DNA from: a virus
Taxonomy: Duplodnaviria; Caudoviricetes
Strand: one strand, 5' to 3'
IMG/VR virus record: IMGVR_UViG_3300033388_005412
Coordinates: 139,295-203,294 of that record
Length of the DNA: 64,000 nucleotides
Shown here: piece after piece, positions 3,009 to 34,779 of the stretch
Numbering within the stretch: position 1 is the stretch's first letter
Layout of the letters: the number at the start of each line of letters is the position of its first letter
Translations under genes and position numbers: made by a program
Notes under the pieces: generated by a model
Databases searched by the model: none
Told to the model about the DNA's origin: nothing
What the model saw: the letters and a program-made list of their open reading frames with translations, nothing else

Positions 3009-3221
3009 GAGGCAAAAATTTTGTATATTTTTTTTGATAAATTCACATATAAAAAATCCTATATATACTGAAAAATTCCAATGTTTTCTGAAAATTTTTG
3101 TATATTTTTTCACGGGTAGGTAGTGTTATATATATGATATAACAAACTAATTTCACGGCCCCCCTTCTGTGATATTATGTAAATGATGGGGATGATAATA
3201 CATAAATGAAAAGGAGGAAAC

Positions 3222-3374
3222 ATGGAACATTTCGTTGTGTTAACAAGCATTGAACCCATAACAATTGCAATGCGTTACATCAGATGGAAGTATGGGAAAG
3301 ATGTGCTTGCTAGAGTTGTTCAAGAAGAACTTCATGATGTGATCATGAAAGTAGAGAAAAGGAGGTCATTATGA
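3222..3374 (+). CDS. small hypothetical protein (50 aa)
   Basis: AGGAGG then ATG; ATGA overlap with next gene. Confidence 0.6.
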   Translation: MEHFVVLTSIEPITIAMRYIRWKYGKDVLARVVQEELHDVIMKVEKRRSL

Positions 3375-3637
3375 CTATTTGTGAATCGTTGTTGTGTGGT
3401 GTGTTGGATAGTATTCCAGCATCTGCAAATGAAGTAGCTATGTCTGATTTAAACTATCAGGCAGGAAAAGAGTTCGGGCGCTCATTCAGTGAACTCGAAG
3501 CACACGAGGCCCTTCCCATAGCTAGGGAAATGGCCGATGTATGGAGTGAAGGAGTTGTGGCTGACTCTATCACACTAACGGATATATCAAGAGCCAGAAG
3601 ACTTGATAGAAAGATAGAAAGGAGGCGACTATGTTAA
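3371..3637 (+). CDS. hypothetical protein, paralog of 7551-7862
   Basis: LCGVLDSIPA/LCGMLDAVPA, FSELEAHEA/FGDLEAEEA and DRKIERR/MDKIERR shared with 7551. Confidence 0.75.
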   Translation: MTICESLLCGVLDSIPASANEVAMSDLNYQAGKEFGRSFSELEAHEALPIAREMADVWSEGVVADSITLTDISRARRLDRKIERRRLC

Positions 3638-3786
3638 GCACATGGTGGGTTGTGTGGGTTGTTGGTGGAGAAATAAGAAGTGGAATCATGGACTCATGTG
3701 AGATCATGCCAGTAAATGATGTTATCTCAAAACAAAGAGGTGATCTGGATGCTTTTGGTGACTTTTATAGTTATTGAATTAAACCA

Positions 3787-3848
3787 AAACTGAAGATATA
3801 CAAGTTTAGCTACATTGTGCGGTATTTAAAGTATATCATTAAAAGGAG
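3787..3848 (+). promoter_or_regulatory. conserved promoter/operator-like element, copy 1
   Basis: AAAACTGAAGATATACAAGTTT...TTTAAAGTATATCA then AGGAGG; GATATAC/GTATATC inverted repeat with 29-nt spacer. Confidence 0.65.
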
Positions 3849-4112: not shown

Positions 4113-4175
4113 AAAACTGAAGATATACAAGTTTTATCATAATGCATGGTTTTTAAAGTATATCACAACAGGAGG
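4113..4175 (+). promoter_or_regulatory. conserved promoter/operator-like element, copy 2
   Basis: Same two blocks and identical 29-nt spacing as copy 1, followed by AGGAGG. Confidence 0.65.
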
Positions 4176-4550: not shown

Positions 4551-4778
4551 ATGAAAGATGTTTTAAAAACAATTGGTAGTATGTATGCACTAGTTGGGAT
4601 TTTGTACTGGCCGATTATTCTGATGAGTCTCATCGGTTGGTCTATTGGCTGGGCTAATGAAGGGTTCAAATGGTTCATATGGAACTTTTCGCCGCCATAT
4701 GTTATTAACATCGTTGTGTTAGTAGCTATTGGAACAACCTTTAATATGCTTGTGTGGCTGAAGAAACTTTATAACTAA
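4551..4778 (+). CDS. small membrane protein
   Basis: AGGAG; two hydrophobic segments. Confidence 0.65.
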   Translation: MKDVLKTIGSMYALVGILYWPIILMSLIGWSIGWANEGFKWFIWNFSPPYVINIVVLVAIGTTFNMLVWLKKLYN

Positions 4779-4836
4779 GGAGGTGAATGAAAACAAAAAC
4801 TGGCCCGTTGATTTCGAAGAAGTAAAGGAGAACAAA

Positions 4837-5124
4837 ATGAATAATTACCTTAAAAATTATTGCACAGCATGCTGGGTTGTAATATTGCTACTTCTACCAT
4901 CATGGATATGTATCACCATGGGATGGACGTATGCGATTATCAATAGTGGACTTAAAACATTCATCTGGAGTTACAACACAGAAGAAGTACTATTCGTATT
5001 GGTCACGTGGGTGATGAGCATCCCATTAACTGTGATATGGATAAGAAATGTTATAACTAAAGATGATAATAATCTATGTGACGTAGCAGGGCAACTGTAT
5101 CTAAAACTAAGATCTGAAATATAA
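4837..5124 (+). CDS. small membrane protein, similar layout to 4551-4778
   Basis: AGGAG before MNNYL; two hydrophobic segments; GFKWFIWNF vs GLKTFIWSY. Confidence 0.6.
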   Translation: MNNYLKNYCTACWVVILLLLPSWICITMGWTYAIINSGLKTFIWSYNTEEVLFVLVTWVMSIPLTVIWIRNVITKDDNNLCDVAGQLYLKLRSEI

Positions 5125-5134
5125 GGAGGAGCCG

Positions 5135-6005
5135 ATGAAAACAACAGTGTTAAAAGTTGTTCCGTATCATGCTGATATACTGTGTAAGAACATTGTTATA
5201 TCATTCGGATTGACGCCCGAAAATAAGGTACGGGAAATGGCAAGATGGAAACCTGGAGCAGGCCGGATTTATAACCACAGTCAGTTACAAGTAAGTAAAG
5301 CGGAATGGATCACCATGTACAGGAGGGCATGTGCGATCCTAAAGAAGTACATTGAAGATAAGAAGCAGTTAACGCTAGAAATATAAAAAGGAGGAGAAAA
5401 TGAAAAAGATAGTTTTTGAAGCTTTAGTTAACAGAGCCAGAAGATCATACGGAATGAGACCGATTAAAACACCGTTTGGTATAAAGAAGGCCCGTGTCGT
5501 GTTCTATAACACAATGATCGGACACAATGTATCGAAAGATGATGCTCAGGCTGTAATGAAAACAGCCAGTATACCGCTGCATGCAGAAAAGGCTGTCCAT
5601 GGGGTAATCTTTGCCGGTTCTCATCTTATAACAACAAGCATTATGAGAGACGCGCTGAAAACAATCAAGACATGAGTTATGACAACTGGCTTGAAAAGAA
5701 GTTTGGTGAAAAAAGGCGCCGGCTTAAATTAAAGAACGAAGAAAGAAAATTAAATTCCAGTAAAACATCAGATGAATTTCATCGAAAGTTTATGGATTTA
5801 ATTGTCGAACGCGGAAAGAAGACAAGGAGGGACAATGCGATTGTATGTTAAAATGTATGGATGGCTGAAGTTTTTGTTCATGAAATGGCCGGGATTGATT
5901 AAATACATCCCTTCCGCTGAATGGCAGACATTATGGGCCAACATAGTATGGGAACAGGAACATGTCAGATGGGCTGATGAGTTTGATGTTGAAATAGAAG
6001 ATTAA
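5135..6005 (+). other. three small hypothetical genes (5135-5386, 5400-5675, 5835-6005)
   Basis: Each preceded by AGGAGG-type SD, co-directional. Confidence 0.6.
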
Positions 6006-6016
6006 AGGAGGAATAA

Positions 6017-6349
6017 ATGAAAAAGAAAAAAGCTAAAATTGGTGATATTATCAAAGCATCAAGGGATCTCAAAACTCTTTCACCTGAAAAAAGATTAAGC
6101 AAACTTCGAAAACTTATAGATGAAATACCATCATCTAAAACACCACATAAGAGTAAGATAAATCATGTCATTCCACGGTGCAATAGTCCGCTATTTGCCA
6201 AACCAGAGTGGATAAGAGATAATTGTATATATTCACCTAAATATGGGTACATAATCAAACCAAATTGGATGAGAGATAATTGTCTATGCTCGCTCAAATC
6301 ATTAATGGAAGCTGCAACAAGTGGATTGAATATTGAGATTAAAGACTAA
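6017..6349 (+). CDS. microprotein homologous to an internal (beta-like barrel) segment of the ~650-aa RNAP paralogs
   Basis: LSPEKRLSKLRKLIDEI..KT..K.KI...AKPEWIRDN aligns with LPIEKRLNRIQKLIGEM..KT..K.KI...AKPSWMRLN of 8037; own AGGAGG. Confidence 0.75.
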   Translation: MKKKKAKIGDIIKASRDLKTLSPEKRLSKLRKLIDEIPSSKTPHKSKINHVIPRCNSPLFAKPEWIRDNCIYSPKYGYIIKPNWMRDNCLCSLKSLMEAATSGLNIEIKD

Positions 6350-6358
6350 GGAGGTAAA

Positions 6359-6604
6359 ATGCAAATAATAGCAAATCTGATAATTCCTGATTATATTTAT
6401 GAAAATGGAAAAATCATAAAATATAAAAAATTATCAGACAAACAAAAACAGAATGTGAGAAAACAATGTCAACACGTAAGTATACTAAAACAACAACGCA
6501 TGAAAAGGATGAAACAACATACTTCGATCGACATACAGAAACTTAATGGAGCATTCACTGCATCGGATCTTGAAAAAATAAGAAAAATAAAGGAGGTAAA
6601 ATGA
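6359..6604 (+). CDS. microprotein homologous to the N-terminus of the RNAP paralogs
   Basis: MQIIANLIIPDYIYENG...KQNVRKQCQHVSIL vs MKIISNLIIPEFICEDG...KQDVRKHCQHVSVL of 32833. Confidence 0.8.
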   Translation: MQIIANLIIPDYIYENGKIIKYKKLSDKQKQNVRKQCQHVSILKQQRMKRMKQHTSIDIQKLNGAFTASDLEKIRKIKEVK

Positions 6605-6831
6605 CTAAATTAGAAATAGAATTTATGAAAAACTCGTTAATTTTCATTAAGAAATATAGTGAGTCTGATAAATTCAAAATTAAAAATCATACGGACTGTG
6701 CTCATCATGTTGTGTTGTTACATAACAAAGATCTTAGTGCAGTAGATGGAATGAAAACATATAAAAAAGGAACAATGAAAGAAAAAGATATAAAAATGTT
6801 ATTTGGATATCACACAAAGGAGGTAAAATGA
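6601..6831 (+). CDS. microprotein with similarity to an internal RNAP segment
   Basis: DLS...YKKGTMKEKDIKMLFGY vs DLS...YEKGLITEEDVKALFGY of 8037. Confidence 0.6.
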   Translation: MTKLEIEFMKNSLIFIKKYSESDKFKIKNHTDCAHHVVLLHNKDLSAVDGMKTYKKGTMKEKDIKMLFGYHTKEVK

Positions 6832-6974
6832 CAAGAAATCAATGGATTGGTTTAGGAGTTGTGGGAGTTATAGGCATAATTGCTTATAAGAAAAGAAAGA
6901 AGATTGCCAAAGTAACAAAGGAGATGTGGGACAAGGGAAAGAAAGCCTATGAAAACGAAAAGGAGGCTAAATGA
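6828..6974 (+). CDS. single-TM peptide, paralog of the N-terminus of 10024-10560
   Basis: IGLGVVGVIGIIAYKKR vs IGLGIIGGALGVVAYKKR; GGAGG SD. Confidence 0.7.
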   Translation: MTRNQWIGLGVVGVIGIIAYKKRKKIAKVTKEMWDKGKKAYENEKEAK

Positions 6975-7225
6975 ATAAAACACGCTCGATCATAGCTGAC
7001 CGATTAAAAACTAAAAACTGGTGGATAAAAATGGTAGAACGGGATAGAGATAGATTTGAAGAATTGTTTATAACTGAAAAAGGAAAAACGATGAGATTAA
7101 TTAACGTGCTAAAAAGAATAGCAAACATCGAATATAAGAATAAATCAGTTATAGATAAAAATGTTTTTATAACTATAAGAGGCATTATCTTAAAGGCAAT
7201 TGCAGATAATGAGAAGAATCAATGA
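6971..7225 (+). CDS. hypothetical protein
   Basis: AGGAGG, ATGA overlap. Confidence 0.6.
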   Translation: MNKTRSIIADRLKTKNWWIKMVERDRDRFEELFITEKGKTMRLINVLKRIANIEYKNKSVIDKNVFITIRGIILKAIADNEKNQ

Positions 7226-7248: not shown

Positions 7249-7503
7249 GGCCGCCGCAAGGCGGCCTCAATAAATAATGAATACTCAAAATCACCAAAAT
7301 CAACAAAACAGTACTCAAATCAGTAATCAAATCAACAAAACAGTACTTAAAACAATAAATCAAATAATTAAATACAAATGTGATGAAATCACAAATCAAA
7401 TAGTATCAAACAATATCAAATAGTATCAACTATTATCTATTATATATAATAGGAAGAAACAAAGAGAAATGGTGTTAAATGAAGGCGGCCGCGGAAGCGG
7501 CCT
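7249..7503. repeat. G-poor repeat tract bracketed by two GC-rich GNRA hairpins
   Basis: GGCCGCC-GCAA-GGCGGCC and GGCCGC-GGAA-GCGGCC flank AATCAACAAAACAGTACT x2 and TCAAATAGTATCAA x2. Confidence 0.7.
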
Positions 7504-7550: not shown

Positions 7551-7862
7551 ATGTCAGAACAAGAACTGAGATTATGTGGAATGTTGGATGCTGTACCTGC
7601 CCGGTTGGGATGGGTATTTCAAAAGGATGCCGATTTGGTAGCCAGAGAGGAGTATCACAGAGAGTTCGGCGATTTGGAGGCCGAAGAGGCGATTTCTGTG
7701 AGTGAAGAGGTGATCAGCACTTGGCTTGTTGGCGGTGAAGGTCCGGTCATGACATGTGTTGGTGTACGTAAGTATTACAATCTCATGGATAAGATCGAAA
7801 GGAGGATGGTTGAACTGAAGCATGATGTGATGCGGGTTGCCGAAATTACAGACACACCCTAG
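7551..7862 (+). CDS. hypothetical protein, paralog of 3371-3637
   Basis: AAGGAG SD; motifs shared with 3371. Confidence 0.75.
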   Translation: MSEQELRLCGMLDAVPARLGWVFQKDADLVAREEYHREFGDLEAEEAISVSEEVISTWLVGGEGPVMTCVGVRKYYNLMDKIERRMVELKHDVMRVAEITDTP

Positions 7863-7872
7863 AGGAGAGATA

Positions 7873-8046
7873 ATGAAACATAAGATTGAATTAAGGACTA
7901 GAGATGGAACAGCTCGTGAACTTACTTTGATCATTAAACACAAATTAAATGATGGCAAGATTATAAAACTGTCTAAACATGCGGTTTTATTCAGGACTCT
8001 AACAGAGTCTTATGTTAAGGCAAGTAGGAGGAAAAAATGGAAATGA
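7873..8046 (+). CDS. small basic hypothetical protein
   Basis: AGAGGAG SD before MKHKIE; overlaps the RNAP start. Confidence 0.55.
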   Translation: MKHKIELRTRDGTARELTLIIKHKLNDGKIIKLSKHAVLFRTLTESYVKASRRKKWK

Positions 8047-10022
8047 AAATGAATGTCATTAGTGACCTGATTGTCGCTGAGTTCCTTTATAAAGGAATTG
8101 GCGAAAAGTTAAGGGAAACGGCGAAATTGAAAGGTGCTGAGAGAAAACATGTAATGGGTAGGAGCCATCACATAAGTTTTCTAAGAAACAGGCCGAATTT
8201 AAGAAGGATATTCGAAAATACCTTTACAATTATGAAGGACAACGGTAGTTATACCGATGATGAATATCTTGATGTTTGTAAGAGGGCCAGGGAATCCGGT
8301 TATGTGCCGCAATGGAATGTTAAACGTGCTCATGGAGGAGGCCAGGGCGCTCATGCATGCGGTAAAATAGAATTCGGTAAATCTCAGATCATAGAAGATA
8401 TCCTTAAAGAGGATAATATGCTGGAAGAATTTAGAAATCTTCCTATTGAGAAGAGATTAAATAGAATTCAGAAGCTTATAGGTGAGATGACAAGGTTTAA
8501 AACAGAACCTAAAGTTAAGATTGGGTTTGCCGCCAAAACATACAATGGTATTGTATGGGCAAAACCGAGCTGGATGAGGCTTAATGGTATCTCAATGGGC
8601 GCGAAGACCACAAATGTGTTAAAGTCTCTAATTATGCCTCTGGAGGCCTTGGAAGTGACTGATTATGACATGCTTGTGAGTCCGGAGGAAAATAAATTTA
8701 ACTTAAGTGAGGAAAAGCTTGGTTGTTTAATCAGGTGGGTTCCAAGATTATCACCTAAATCTTTGTTCAGCAGGAACTTAAGAAGGAAGTTTTCAGATAA
8801 GCTTGGAAGAAATCCCCAGATGAAATGGGATTTATTAAGCTTGGTTAATCATATTCCGGATGTTGACTTGTCACATGAGAGGGATATGTACGAGAAGGGG
8901 CTTATCACAGAAGAAGATGTAAAGGCTTTATTCGGTTATGAAAAGAATGGAGAAACAGTGATTCGCCCGGTAGGTAAGCGTATCCTGGCCGGGGAGTCTA
9001 TATTTCATCCGGATATATGGGTAGAGCTTGAAAAACCTTTTAAGAAAATGGTTTTGAATAAGCTGCAGCCGAGAATCAAGGGTATTTATGGAGTGGCTAT
9101 GCCGAAATCCATGTTAAAAATGATACCGAATGAGGCGATTTACTATAAAGCATGGGTTACGAGGTATCCCTGGGTTCTTCCTATTCTTACAAAGATAGGT
9201 GTATGGGAAGGTATGATATTTGTTGATGAAGAGTTATGGGAGATGTTTGGTGGTGATTTTGATGGTGATCAGGCAGCTGCATTTGATTGGGATTCTTTGA
9301 CAACTGATCTCTATCTGGATAGGGATAAAGAGTGGCTGAAGAAGGCCATGAAGATGCCTGTTAAAGAGCCGGCTAACTTTGAAGGCAGAACAGAAGAAGA
9401 AGTTATAGCTAAGCAGCTTAGTCAGTATTCAGGCTGTGGAACTGTGTATAATAATGCTATGACTATAGTGGATGCTGCCAGGGCCGCGGAGTGGAAGTTT
9501 AATGATCTTGTAAAGCTGCAGGCTTATTTGTATGCTAACATAGTTCAGCCTTTTATAGATGGGTTCAAATATAAAGGCGCCAACCATGTACCAAGTCTGT
9601 ATGACATGGTTACAAGAGTTGATGATAAGTTTGATTATCTTTCTATGAAGGAAACAATGAGACTTCGTGATTTTTATAGAGCAATAAGAAGCCGCGGTAG
9701 TTTTATGGATTTAACTGATGTGGCTAAACTCGCCAACGCTGATTCTAAAAGCTTTTATGAAAGAGTTGTCTCTATCTTCAAGGGGTGGAAAAGAGGTGAT
9801 TATATCCCGGTTCCCGCGCTTGATGAGACCATCGCGAAAACAGTGAAAACCAGTTTTGTGAAGTATGGCCGTAATGTTGAGGCGAGATATGATAGCTTTA
9901 ACTATTTGATAACAAGTACTGAAGTACTGAAGGAGGTAATAAGAAATTGTTATGAGAGAAAGGATTACAGTTTGGCTGAGTATTTAGTTGTGAAATTGAA
10001 TGTTGTTGCAGAGGAGGTGTAA
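8037..10022 (+). CDS. putative single-subunit two-barrel RNA polymerase (paralog 1)
   Basis: GAKTTNVLKSLIMP...DMLVSP (beta GDK...KG...DIVLNP-like), QPRIKGIYGV, VTRYP, IFVDEELWEMFGGDFDGDQAAAF (beta' NADFDGD-like), IDGFKYKG. Confidence 0.8.
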   Translation: MEMKMNVISDLIVAEFLYKGIGEKLRETAKLKGAERKHVMGRSHHISFLRNRPNLRRIFENTFTIMKDNGSYTDDEYLDVCKRARESGYVPQWNVKRAHGGGQGAHACGKIEFGKSQIIEDILKEDNMLEEFRNLPIEKRLNRIQKLIGEMTRFKTEPKVKIGFAAKTYNGIVWAKPSWMRLNGISMGAKTTNVLKSLIMPLEALEVTDYDMLVSPEENKFNLSEEKLGCLIRWVPRLSPKSLFSRNLRRKFSDKLGRNPQMKWDLLSLVNHIPDVDLSHERDMYEKGLITEEDVKALFGYEKNGETVIRPVGKRILAGESIFHPDIWVELEKPFKKMVLNKLQPRIKGIYGVAMPKSMLKMIPNEAIYYKAWVTRYPWVLPILTKIGVWEGMIFVDEELWEMFGGDFDGDQAAAFDWDSLTTDLYLDRDKEWLKKAMKMPVKEPANFEGRTEEEVIAKQLSQYSGCGTVYNNAMTIVDAARAAEWKFNDLVKLQAYLYANIVQPFIDGFKYKGANHVPSLYDMVTRVDDKFDYLSMKETMRLRDFYRAIRSRGSFMDLTDVAKLANADSKSFYERVVSIFKGWKRGDYIPVPALDETIAKTVKTSFVKYGRNVEARYDSFNYLITSTEVLKEVIRNCYERKDYSLAEYLVVKLNVVAEEV

Positions 10023-10023
10023 C

Positions 10024-10560
10024 ATGGATAAAAGACTTTTGATTGGATTAGGTATTATAGGCGGCGCGCTTGGTGTCGTTGCCTATAAAAAGAGAGAAGA
10101 GCTTGCTGTGTTTGGGAAGAAAATGCTGAAAGCGTATATGATAGGCGCCAGACAGCATGAGGAATATATGTATGGTGATCCAGATGCGGCAGTTGGTGAT
10201 ATGCTTGATGGCGTTGGTGAACTTGCCAGGGCTGATGATAAGTATATCTCACATTTCTTTTCGTTTCATGCGACAGGTGTGACGTTTAAAGATAGACAGG
10301 ATCTTATAAGATATACGAATAAGGACACTGGCTTGCATTTTAAGAAGAATCCTGTTGAAGAAGACAAGAATGCTGTGGCGATTGTGGATGATCATAGTAG
10401 AATTCTTGGTTGGGTTCCTAGAACCATAGCTCCGCATATAGGTGGTAAGATGGACAAGGAGTTGATTAACATAGTGTCATGGAGAAAAGTAGGTGGGGAG
10501 AATGATTATAAGTATGGTCTTGTTATAACTGTTGATGATAAAACAATTGAATATGCTTAG
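10024..10560 (+). CDS. HIRAN-domain protein with N-terminal transmembrane helix
   Basis: FHATGVTF..RQ, LHFKKNP..DKNAVAI, ILGWVPR..APHI pattern of HIRAN; start at 10024 after GAGGAGG. Confidence 0.75.
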   Translation: MDKRLLIGLGIIGGALGVVAYKKREELAVFGKKMLKAYMIGARQHEEYMYGDPDAAVGDMLDGVGELARADDKYISHFFSFHATGVTFKDRQDLIRYTNKDTGLHFKKNPVEEDKNAVAIVDDHSRILGWVPRTIAPHIGGKMDKELINIVSWRKVGGENDYKYGLVITVDDKTIEYA

Positions 10561-14787: not shown

Positions 14788-15101
14788 GTGATAGAATAAC
14801 TGTGGCTAACGGAAAATATACTGTTATTATGTATGATGACGGTAGAATGGAAGCGCTTAGACATGGCGAAAAATGGCAGGAATCTTTAAGCAGTAATTTG
14901 ATAGGAACATTAGCTAATGATTTATTAGAGGCTCGCGCAGAGTCAACGAGATTGACGAAGGCATTAGAAAAGATAAACAAACTATCCGCAAATCCATTAA
15001 CAAAAACAATGGGTAAAGAAAGGATAGATTTATTAAGAGGTATTGCAAAGATATTTGACATTACATTTAAAGAACTTGCCGAATATAAGGAGGATAAATG
15101 A
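14784..15101 (+). CDS. hypothetical protein sharing a coiled-coil module with 15098
   Basis: LANDLLEARAESTRLTKAL vs LASDLLDALTESAKLAKAL; ends LAEYKEDK. Confidence 0.7.
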   Translation: MSDRITVANGKYTVIMYDDGRMEALRHGEKWQESLSSNLIGTLANDLLEARAESTRLTKALEKINKLSANPLTKTMGKERIDLLRGIAKIFDITFKELAEYKEDK

Positions 15102-15628: not shown

Positions 15629-16905
15629 AAATGCCGGATGAATGCTCGAATTGTGATTATGTTAAAGCGTGTTATTGGGAAGAATCCTGGCCGTTATGTA
15701 TCCGTAATCCAAAATCTAACTTAAATTTAGTAGGACAGTTGGCGAAAAGATTGAAGGTTATTGATAAAAATATAACGATTATCTTCATGCCTAATCAGGA
15801 AGTTCAGATAAGTGAAGATGATAATATTCCGACGAATTATGATTTTAGCGATGCGTCTGATAAGGAGGAAAAATGATAAAATCAAAATTGTATAAAGTTG
15901 AAAATCCGGCTGTTGAAGACGGCATTGAAGTATGGTTGGTTGTGGCGAAAACAAGCGTGGAAGCAATGCAGATGGTAAGAAATACATTAAATGAAAAAGC
16001 ATTAAAATATATTGATGAGGCTGGAGGTTTTGATGTAAAAATAATCGAGCCGAAATATGGTATTACTGATTATATCAGCTGGTTTATCCCCGCTGGAGGA
16101 CCCGGAGTATAAGGAGGAAAAATGAAAATTGATAAATACATGATGGCGACAAAAGCGATGCATACACTGGGAGATATAAGCAGAGACGTTGAAGATATTT
16201 GTTGTATTCATGAGGAAAAAGATGATTGTTATATTGGAAGCTGGATCTCGGGTTATGGTTTCATAAATGTTGAATTTCCAAAAGAAACAACCCGCGAACT
16301 TACTTCTGATGAAGTTAAAAAATATAATGGACGTAATTATCAGATTTCTAATCAACCGCCTTTTAAATTGAATATTAAAAATAAGGAGGAAAAATGAGAT
16401 GGTGTGATATGTTCGGCGAATTGTTCTCCGAACCTGTGAAAATTATATGCGATCTTAAAGTTAATGGATCTGTTTACAGTGATAGACTATTCACATGGGA
16501 TATGACAAAACATAATGTCTTATGCGAAAAACATTTCGGCGATGCCGGACAAAAATGGGATGATCGTGATCCAGTTAAAATAGAATTGTTTCTCCAGGAT
16601 TATCTTGGGAAAAAATTAAAACTTGTTAAGATTATAAAATCAACAAATGCAAGTACCGGATTTCCGGTATATCAATTCGCATATCATATAGCTGAGGAGG
16701 ATAAATGAAGACTTATAATATTGTAGTTATCAATGGAAAAACAATTTTAGGTACCGTTAAAGGATTAACAAAAAAACAAGTTATGAGAATACTTAATATA
16801 ACTTCCATGGAATTTTACACTTATAAACAATATGGATGTTTTGGATTGATTAAGAAAAAATCCAATTTATTTTTTGGATACAAAATAAAGGAGAATAAAA
16901 AATGA
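15625..16905 (+). other. five small hypothetical genes (15625-15876, 15873-16112, 16122-16397, 16394-16708, 16705-16905)
   Basis: All joined by TAAGGAGGA(A/T)AAATGA-type junctions. Confidence 0.65.
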
Positions 16906-32832: not shown

Positions 32833-34779
32833 ATGAAAATAATATCAAATTTAATAATTCCTGAATTCATATGTGAAGACGGTATATTGACAAGTTATGA
32901 GAAATTACATCCGAAAATAAAACAGGATGTGAGAAAACACTGTCAGCATGTAAGTGTACTGACTTACAGACCGTATATGCGCCGAATTTTAGATAATTCA
33001 TTTACTGTAATGAAATTCGGAGGATCATTTATCGGCGATGAATATTTAGAATTAGTAAAGAAAGCTAAAACTAAAGGATACATAGCACAATGGAATGTCA
33101 AGAGAACACATGGCGGCGGCCGAGGTGCTAAATCGTGGGGCAAAATAGAATTTGCCAGAACACAGATTATAGAAGATATCGTTAAAGAACTGGGTTTTCA
33201 TGAAGAATTCATGAGATTACCGATGGGTAAAAGAATGAACCGCATACAGAAAATAATAGGCGAAATGCACGATTTTCAGATAAAGCCCAGAGTTAAAATA
33301 GTTGGCGATATGGACAAATTCGAGGGATTGCTTTTCGGACGCATAAAATGGATGAGGAAAAATGGAATTGAGCCGGGTGCTAAAACAACTTTAGCAACTA
33401 AGGGGCTTATATTCCCGACGCCAAAACATATTAAATGTGATGCTGACTTACTTGTTCCTGCAGGCGAGAATAAATTCGGCTTAAATGAGGAAAAGTTATC
33501 CGAATTAATAAAATGGATACCAAGATTAACGCCGGGATCACTATTCAGTAGAAATCTTAGACGGAAAAATTCAGATATCCTAGGACGAAATCCGCAGGCA
33601 AAATGGGACCTTCAGGCATTTCTTGATTTTATACCTGAAACTGATTTAACGGAACATAAAGCTGTGTTTGAAGGTAAATTAATGAATGATAAAATTGTCG
33701 ATACATTATTCGGATATAAACAAAAAGGTGAAAAGAAATTAAGATTTCATGGTATGCGGTTGAAGGCCAAAGAATCATTATTTCATCCTGAAGTATGGAA
33801 TGAGGCAGTTAAAACATTAGAAAAATGGATTAGCAAATCAATGCAGCCTGAAGTAAAAGGGCTTTATGGTGTTGTTATGCCGATAAGTCTGTTGAAAATT
33901 ATAAATGAAGAGAGCCATGAATTTGAGGCGTATGTTACAAGGTTTCCATGGGTTACGCCGATAAGAACAAAAATAGCATTATGGAAAGATATAATATTTG
34001 TTCCGGATGATTTATGGAAAGCATTCGGCGGAGATTATGATGGTGACCAAGGGGCCGCGTTTTATAAACATACTATGAATACAGGATTATTATGGAAACG
34101 TGACAAAGAATGGCTTAAGCGTATAATGACACTTCCTGAGAAAGAAGATGATGCTTCAAATAAAAGTGAAGATGAAGTTATCGCGATACAACTTGATCAG
34201 TACGCATATTGCGGACGTATTTATAATAGTGGAAAGATTGTTGTTGACGCGGCGAGAATGGAAGGTTGGGGCCAAAGAGAAATCCAGGAACTGGACATGA
34301 AAATAGCAGCAACTGATGTTCAGCCGTATATAGACGGCTTTAAATATAAAGCCGGTGTAAAACCCTTGAGTGTTTATGAACTTGCTGATAAATATTGTGT
34401 GTCAAAAAAATGTGTTGGCAAAGTGAAAACATATTTTAACGCATTAAGAGGCAGCAAAAGCGGAATAGAACTTGTGGTTGCTCTCTCGAAATTCGCACAT
34501 CCGGAAAGTAAAAGTTTCTATGAAAGAATTGTCAGCAAATTTAAAGAATTCCGTAAAGGTGATTATAAGGAAGTTAACAAAATTCCTATTGATATGGAAA
34601 AGGCGATTAAATATAGTTATGTTAAACACAGAGATGACTTGGACTCAAGATATTTAAGTTTTGAAAAATATTTAAAAACCAATGAACTTATTAACGGCGC
34701 TATAAGAAATTGTTTTGACAGGCGGGATGTCAGAATGGCAAGATTTATACACGAAAAGAAAGAACTTGAAAAATCATAA
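32833..34779 (+). CDS. putative single-subunit two-barrel RNA polymerase (paralog 2)
   Basis: KFEGLLFG, GAKTTLATKGLIFP..ADLLVP, QPEVKGLYGV, VTRFP, IFVPDDLWKAFGGDYDGDQGAAF, YIDGFKYK; colinear with 8037-10022. Confidence 0.8.
   Translation: MKIISNLIIPEFICEDGILTSYEKLHPKIKQDVRKHCQHVSVLTYRPYMRRILDNSFTVMKFGGSFIGDEYLELVKKAKTKGYIAQWNVKRTHGGGRGAKSWGKIEFARTQIIEDIVKELGFHEEFMRLPMGKRMNRIQKIIGEMHDFQIKPRVKIVGDMDKFEGLLFGRIKWMRKNGIEPGAKTTLATKGLIFPTPKHIKCDADLLVPAGENKFGLNEEKLSELIKWIPRLTPGSLFSRNLRRKNSDILGRNPQAKWDLQAFLDFIPETDLTEHKAVFEGKLMNDKIVDTLFGYKQKGEKKLRFHGMRLKAKESLFHPEVWNEAVKTLEKWISKSMQPEVKGLYGVVMPISLLKIINEESHEFEAYVTRFPWVTPIRTKIALWKDIIFVPDDLWKAFGGDYDGDQGAAFYKHTMNTGLLWKRDKEWLKRIMTLPEKEDDASNKSEDEVIAIQLDQYAYCGRIYNSGKIVVDAARMEGWGQREIQELDMKIAATDVQPYIDGFKYKAGVKPLSVYELADKYCVSKKCVGKVKTYFNALRGSKSGIELVVALSKFAHPESKSFYERIVSKFKEFRKGDYKEVNKIPIDMEKAIKYSYVKHRDDLDSRYLSFEKYLKTNELINGAIRNCFDRRDVRMARFIHEKKELEKS

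Follow-up and report, generated by a model that had tools for sequence, protein, structure and literature searches.

The element examined here is a block of three adjacent small open reading frames, ORF1–3, at positions 6017–6831 of the window, the 64,000-nucleotide stretch that forms the last 64 kb of a 203,294-bp IMG/VR virus record (IMGVR_UViG_3300033388_005412) with direct terminal repeats. All three derive from an RNA polymerase (RNAP) family of which two full-length members, R1 and R2, are present in the same window. The locus is read as a dispensable, strain-specific patchwork of polymerase gene pieces that are mostly functionless, an interpretation to which we give about an even chance. 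Two R1-type pieces (residues ~115–205 and ~240–304) and one R2-type piece (residues 1–82) would have been pasted between the conserved small gene at 5835 and a membrane-peptide gene. New here are the nature of the block as an insertion/deletion (indel), its cassette-bounded pieces, and its open frames, with ORF2 constrained and ORF1 and ORF3 nearly free. The whole genome has ~33% GC, and nearly all of its genes lie on the plus strand.

ORF1, 6017..6349, plus strand: 110 aa; similar to polymerase residues ~115–205, R1 lineage; its last ~8 residues resemble the end of the upstream gene.
ORF2, 6359..6604, plus strand: 81 aa; complete polymerase N-terminal domain (residues 1–82), closest to R2.
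ORF3, 6601..6831, plus strand: 76 aa; similar to polymerase residues ~240–304, R1 lineage.
Tandem duplication in ORF1, 6199..6299, plus strand: in-frame, 44-nt copies at 6199–6242 and 6256–6299, period 57 nt, 80% identical.
R1, 8037..10022, plus strand: full-length two-barrel RNA polymerase by predicted fold, GGDFDGDQ; parent lineage of ORF1 and ORF3.
R2, 32833..34779, plus strand: R1 paralog, GGDYDGDQ; probable parent lineage of ORF2.

A preliminary description of this DNA had proposed that the three frames were cut from RNAP segments, and this was borne out by BLASTP and by the significance of genome-wide profile matches. In BLASTP, ORF1 matched R1 residues 119–185 with 39% identity (E = 2e-10), its match to R2 being weaker, and ORF3 matched R1 residues 265–302 (35%, E = 3e-5). 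ORF2 aligned end to end with R2 residues 1–79 at 44% identity (E = 2e-19), versus 26% with R1, in agreement with its proposed closeness to the second paralog. When a profile of 14 family members was searched against all 7460 six-frame pieces of the 203-kb genome, the only matches were R1, R2 and the three adjacent ORFs (ORF E values 1.4e-12, 3.2e-4 and 4.2e-3). The matches of ORF1–3 stop at position ~299 of 624, and this whole-genome search found no remnant of the catalytic half outside R1 and R2, leaving residues 305–661 unrepresented. ORF3 residues 29–74 correspond to family positions 256–299 by profile, and residues 10–74 probably correspond to R1 about 240–304 by codon alignment. The idea that the first half of ORF3 is a second copy of the N-terminal domain was rejected, given the contiguous alignment of residues 29–74. 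The internal KP.W.RDNC duplication noted earlier in ORF1 is real; its copies differ in amino acid at 5 of 14 codons and carry one synonymous change. The last ~8 residues of ORF1 resemble the tail of the 5835 gene rather than polymerase.

As the preliminary description had stated, the DxDGD motif (the metal-binding DxDxD of the DPBB-A barrel), present in R1 and R2, was not found in any of ORF1–3. The GAKTT lysine strand of the DPBB-B barrel is deleted in ORF1, where G188 and K190 have no counterpart. With neither the DxDxD barrel nor the conserved lysine strand, ORF1–3 are not polymerases, and their products are unable to polymerise RNA. Their parents belong to the fold family of the two-barrel RNAPs gp64, gp62, QDE-1 and RDR2, from which ORF1–3 differ in that same loss. 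Multisubunit RNA polymerases of jumbo phages are encoded by split beta and beta-prime genes (PMC7598289), and there too polymerase sequence is divided among several phage genes. The jumbo-phage pieces, however, make a complete active enzyme, whereas ORF1–3 are without the catalytic half and stand alongside the intact single-chain R1 and R2.

The three products might instead be a split, permuted N-terminal module that reassembles the ~300-residue part, for example for nucleic-acid or partner binding. Residues 1–82, 115–205 and 240–304 do make up most of the N-terminal half, and the ORFs would be co-transcribed and translationally coupled. Nevertheless, the GAKTT strand is missing, polymerase residues 83–114 and 206–239 are not represented, the pieces come from different paralogs, ORF1 and ORF3 evolve nearly freely and relatives lack the block (see below). 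Such a module is highly improbable.

R1 and R2, both ~650 aa, are 46% identical and were unrecognised in Pfam, PHROGs and PDB sequence searches; Pfam and PHROGs returned nothing usable for ORF1–3 either. R1 was modeled with AlphaFold2 from ten homologs (pLDDT 85), and the model matched QDE-1, plant RDR2, P74-26 gp62 and P23-45 gp64 with a Foldseek probability of 1.0. These four are single-subunit two-barrel RNA polymerases (PMC10770324; PDB 8F72, 8F5M, 2J7N), and by predicted fold R1 and R2 are single-chain enzymes of the same kind. The two genes differ in composition: the GC content of third codon positions (GC3) is 0.39 in R1, above most of the genome, with third-position A of 0.24, and in R2 the values are 0.29 and 0.40. 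From this contrast, the two polymerases appear to differ in history or in expression class. Two polymerase-family paralogs (L009 and L010) also lie ~7 kb apart on viral contig IMGVR_UViG_3300037067_018538, and the two-polymerase arrangement is thus not unique to the phage studied.

Comparison with relatives delimited the block and its flanks.

Upstream conserved small gene, 5835..6005, plus strand: 56 aa; its 90%-identity cluster has 3 members.
Block absent from L021, 6012..6823, plus strand: 812 nt; ends ambiguous by the 10-nt direct repeat AAAGGAGG(A/T)A.
Membrane-peptide gene, 6828..6974, plus strand: 48 aa; conserved and free-standing in L005 and L021.

The closest relative, L021, is a 9.2-kb contig of JGI sample 3300033145 and was found through the 90% cluster of the 5835 protein. 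It has the ortholog of the 5835 gene at 7331–7501 and is colinear with the window at 80–91% nucleotide identity; the same sample also yields an R1 ortholog (L007, 92% identical) and an R2 ortholog (L008, 90%). L021 6608–7506 corresponds to window 5121–6011 and L021 7497–7636 to window 6814–6953, with L021 7497–7506 aligning twice, to window 6002–6011 and 6814–6823. At the junction the 5835-like gene ends GAGAAC TAA and leads through GGAGGTAAC GTG ACA AGA straight into the membrane-peptide gene. No counterparts of ORF1–3 were found in L021 outside its polymerase gene. Because the closest relative is without the block, the block is most likely dispensable.

In the distant relative L005 (polymerase 54% identical) the gene order is 3371-like, 4177-like, 5400-like, membrane peptide, polymerase, with no polymerase fragments at the locus; the polymerase loci of relatives L005–L020 likewise hold no extra fragments. 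Homologs of the membrane peptide lie at 3095–3259 in L005 (38%) and 7511–7642 in L021 (82%), and since it is a separate gene in both, it is a conserved free-standing gene. The preliminary description had named an intact gene at this site in relatives as evidence against independent microgenes; L021 and L005 carry nothing there. The R1 ortholog in L021 (8489–9204) has a frame break near residues 181–183, ~170 nt from the contig end, and L007, from the same sample, begins at residue ~204. Faulty assembly or a mixture of strains, and not a genuinely broken gene, may account for the break.

Each piece is bounded by a ribosome-binding and start cassette.

J0, ORF1 start cassette AAAGGAGGAATAAATG, 6004..6019, plus strand: left edge of the indel.
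J1 cassette AAGGAGGTAAAATG, 6348..6361, plus strand: supplies the polymerase start codon (ATG) with which ORF2 begins.
J2 cassette, 6590..6603, plus strand: 17 nt AAAGGAGGTAAAATGAC identical to J3; ATGA stop/start overlap.
J3 cassette, 6817..6830, plus strand: native start cassette of the membrane-peptide gene; TAAGGAGGTAACGTGAC in L021, AGGAGGTTATTATGAC in L005.

Across the 203 kb of the genome the J1 sequence has only three occurrences, one at each of three successive ORF junctions (6348, 6590 and 6817), and the 17-nt identity of J2 and J3 includes the AC that begins the membrane-peptide gene. As the peptide genes of relatives have the same site type, J3 is taken as native and appears to have been copied to J1 and J2. 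Taken with J1, the final ~26 nt of ORF1 resemble the tail and cassette of the 5835 gene (NIEIKD* versus DVEIE[DN]*). The polymerase homology of each piece extends right to its cassette, with ORF2 beginning precisely where the polymerase has its start codon. The ORFs each have a GGAGG site, an ATG start and a stop codon, as had been described, and at two junctions stop and start overlap as ATGA. The shared cassette suggests copying without proving it. ORF1 and ORF2 are in the same frame (6346–6361) with only TAA GGA GGT AAA between them, and read-through of that one stop would give a fusion.

The lineage of the pieces was traced by trees and codon comparisons. In a tree of residues 112–214, ORF1 fell inside the R1/P0007/P0008 clade with support of 95/96, on a branch of 3.85 versus a median of 0.45 (~9-fold). 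ORF3 was nearest to R1 and the R1 ortholog, and both pieces are accordingly assigned by sequence to the R1 lineage. ORF2 and R2 use the same codon at 23 of 34 identical residues versus 16.1 expected (P = 0.009), ORF2 and R1 being at expectation. Their grouping in the tree is weak (61/70), and in the approximately unbiased (AU) test an R1-clade origin was not rejected (p = 0.31), a position as sister to R1 alone being borderline (p = 0.06). ORF2 is probably of R2 lineage.

Along the DNA the pieces run middle, start, later relative to the polymerase. The earlier claim that this order is incompatible with simple decay of one extra copy was upheld by the two paralog lineages and by the repeated junction copies that bound the pieces. 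Decay of a single copy explains the mixed origin, the shuffled order and the cassette boundaries of the pieces less well than repeated duplication or template switching does. The events would have taken place at the ribosome-binding/start cassette of the junction, which would be re-copied each time, giving every piece its own Shine–Dalgarno sequence and ATG in a translationally coupled chain. With a cassette of its own on each piece, ORF1–3 are probably translated. Their frames would plausibly be kept open because a premature stop would uncouple translation downstream.

In mosaic phage genomes, gene remnants and truncated paralogs arise from duplication and illegitimate recombination, as in mycobacteriophage comparisons (PMC3029335). 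ORF1–3 resemble such remnants in being partial copies in a variable slot between conserved genes, with junction boundaries, strain variability and relaxed evolution. They differ in that all three are open with strong starts, are reordered, come from two paralogs and each terminate in a copy of one start cassette, and in the purifying selection on ORF2.

No stop interrupts the frames in use, against 20–32 stops per 271 codons in the other frames of the 815 nt, and all indels in ORF1–3 are in frame. Under simulated neutral decay to ~40% identity, the homologous parts had stop-free probabilities of 0.047, 0.013 and 0.26 (product ~1.6e-4). Selection was estimated with a branch codon model (own GY94-type implementation, bounded branches, profile likelihoods) that assumes stationary composition, an assumption violated by the A-rich fragments. 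The background omega (dN/dS) was 0.045–0.097. ORF1 and ORF3 both gave a best omega of ~0.3, and omega = 1, worse by 1.5 and 1.35 log-likelihood (lnL) units, was not rejected. Family-conserved columns were kept at 9 of 19 positions in ORF1 and 4 of 11 in ORF3, and R143, G171 and E286 are changed in the fragments. Pairwise dN/dS by NG86 was 0.31–0.40, other methods failing near saturation. The preliminary description had regarded a dN/dS near 1 as an argument against function; this value is compatible with ORF1 and ORF3 and incompatible with ORF2.

All three ORFs are compositional outliers, with A of 0.42–0.51, GC3 of 0.23–0.25 and 16–21% lysine versus about 10–12% in the parents. Relaxed selection and compositional drift are seen in ORF1 and ORF3, while ORF2 is A- and lysine-rich but constrained in amino-acid sequence. 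As to the usual marks of a pseudogene, ORF1–3 show neither disrupted frames nor a lack of translation signals; they do show partial homology with essential parts missing. On the patchwork reading, ORF1 and ORF3 would be by-products in decay.

A recently shattered extra paralog would also account for the open frames and the constraint at codon level, without selection on the fragments: one or two divergent intact RNAP copies, long kept and broken only of late, would have left frames that are inherited and pieces that are pseudogene fragments, irrelevant or not translated. The three identical cassettes fit recent events, and an old regional duplication is hinted at by the paralogy of the 3371 and 7551 ORFs and by the likeness of the membrane peptide to the N-terminus of the post-R1 gene. 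Nevertheless, this history is quite unlikely. Changes at R143, G171 and E286, deletion of the GAKTT strand, the ~9-fold branch of ORF1 and the strong drift towards A and lysine do not suit it, nor does the in-frame duplication in ORF1, whose copies are by now 80% identical. Moreover, two paralog lineages contributed pieces, the site is empty in both relatives and holds no intact gene in either, and the membrane peptide is a conserved free-standing gene rather than a remnant.

Several observations weigh against a functionless patchwork. For ORF2 the best omega was 0.1–0.2, and omega = 1 was rejected (4.0 lnL units worse, 2ΔlnL = 8.0); pooled over ORF1–3 it was also rejected (summed 2ΔlnL about 13.6 on 3 degrees of freedom). 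ORF2 retains 7 of 9 family-conserved columns, which is unexpected for a pure by-product. The cassette argument is tempered by the recurrence of A-rich strong start sites genome-wide (GGAGGAAAAATG 12 times, GGAGGATAAATG 7 times): selection for strong initiation, not copying, could account in part for the cassette that the pieces share. The divergence of ORF1–3 from R1 and R2 far exceeds that of the two phages from each other, so that either the L021 lineage would have deleted the block between the direct repeats or the phage would have imported it from elsewhere. In addition, variation of small early genes between strains is also typical of functional accessory genes, and absence in relatives is no proof of uselessness.

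These points bear on a reading of ORF2, and possibly ORF1 and ORF3, as functional accessory microproteins that mimic the polymerase and would titrate out a partner, poison or tune one of the two enzymes R1 and R2, or serve as decoys for a host sensor. We consider it possible but doubtful. The analysis yielded nothing in favor of the roles of dominant-negative regulator, assembly factor or decoy put forward in the preliminary description, which would be plausible mainly for ORF2. Strain-to-strain presence and absence is common among phage accessory genes, and the three frames and their strong start sites are intact. ORF2 combines an omega well below 1 and the retained conserved columns with a complete predicted domain: modeled with the N-terminal segments of its parents as alignment, it formed a compact alpha/beta domain (pLDDT 78.8) with the parent's element order. 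The ORF2 model had no match in the PDB. Fragments of bacterial proteins, engineered as dominant negatives, can inhibit their parents in vivo (PMC9245647), and microProteins, small single-domain relatives that sequester larger proteins in plants and animals, are an established class (PMC9638782, PMC4807768). ORF1–3 resemble the latter in being small and homologous to part of a larger protein of the same genome, ORF2 spanning what is predicted to be a single complete domain. They are unlike microProteins in that the polymerase family has no known interaction domain, relatives show no conservation, and ORF1 and ORF3 are not whole domains.

Further evidence counts against accessory microproteins. 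The block is absent from both the closest and the distant relative, and no free-standing homolog of the fragments was found among 1.8 to 5.8 billion proteins. An exhaustive phmmer search with ORF1 of 1.84 billion representatives returned only itself, and ORF2, used in word-indexed searches at near as well as longer lengths, found itself or nothing. No matches came from IMG/VR scans with ORF1, ORF2, the two-cassette DNA pattern and the 5400-gene alignment, from a metagenome scan with R1 residues 1–200, or from megablast of the region against GenBank phages. In one DNA sequencing run with a small word share, only 151-nt contigs outside the microgenes and spurious short matches were recovered, and no RNA sequencing runs containing words of the locus were listed. 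ORF1 and ORF3 are partial and non-domain, their omega is compatible with 1, and at least half of the conserved residues are gone from each. Confidence is low in the stand-alone Atlas models (pLDDT 0.48 for ORF1 and 0.56 for ORF2), and Atlas feature searches with both gave no usable match. The gp64 polymerase, related to R1 and R2, is a monomer (PMC10770324), and there is hence no known dimerisation domain for a mimic to exploit.

ORF2 may have kept or gained a function and, judged from its sequence, would be the only credible microprotein candidate. In a more specific version, which we hold to be unlikely, ORF2 and possibly its neighbors would be an early-expressed microProtein born of the RNAP genes and made in one template-switching step at the cassette; it would bind a polymerase or a partner to time or tune the enzymes, or act as a decoy for a host sensor. 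A microprotein of this kind, if it exists, would be the first regulator or decoy derived from a polymerase to be reported from a phage, and would offer a handle on the division of labor between two single-chain two-barrel polymerases. If instead the block is a patchwork, it is a clean natural example of the birth of new small genes in phage early regions, in which fragments pasted at a start cassette are immediately translated and exposed to selection. With one piece constrained (ORF2), two decaying and a sister phage with an empty site, the origin, fate and cost of microgenes become directly testable. For annotation, the locus is a warning that a short ORF similar to part of a large enzyme need be neither a split gene nor a dead pseudogene.

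The early region around the block is a hotspot of small-gene gain and loss. ORF 4783–5124, a tandem paralog of the gene at 4551 (45-nt start region, 87% identical), is absent from L021, and ORF 6971–7225 (84 aa, A-rich like the microgenes) has no counterpart there. The 4551/4783 pair and the lack of 4783 and 6971 in L021 point to local duplications and indels in the same early region, and were counted in favor of the patchwork.

ORFs 3371–3637 and 7551–7862 are paralogs (35% over 85 aa, E = 1e-13); L021 has both a 3371-like (71%) and a 7551-like gene (86%), and L005 a 3371-like gene only. The membrane peptide (6828–6974) is similar to the N-terminus of the post-R1 gene at 10024–10560 (44% over 34 aa). 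In L005 the post-polymerase gene is without this peptide-like N-terminal part and the peptide is free-standing. A reading of the region as a doubled module, with the peptide left over from the post-R1 gene, was partly rejected: the 3371/7551 paralogy is real, but the peptide stands as a separate conserved gene in L021 and L005, and the block of ORF1–3 is a discrete indel. A HIRAN label for the 10024–10560 protein was not confirmed by Pfam at E = 0.01 or better, a precomputed 'faint' match existing for the L005 homolog only.

A 53-nt direct repeat (3786–3838 and 4113–4165, 81% identical) lies ahead of two early genes. Elsewhere in the window, neighboring small genes at 15864, 16113 and 16385 and at 15089, 15616 and 16696 share the start-site 12-mers GGAGGAAAAATG or GGAGGATAAATG. 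The genes sharing a 12-mer are spaced about 250–1080 nt apart, and these runs may be other tandem arrays built likewise.

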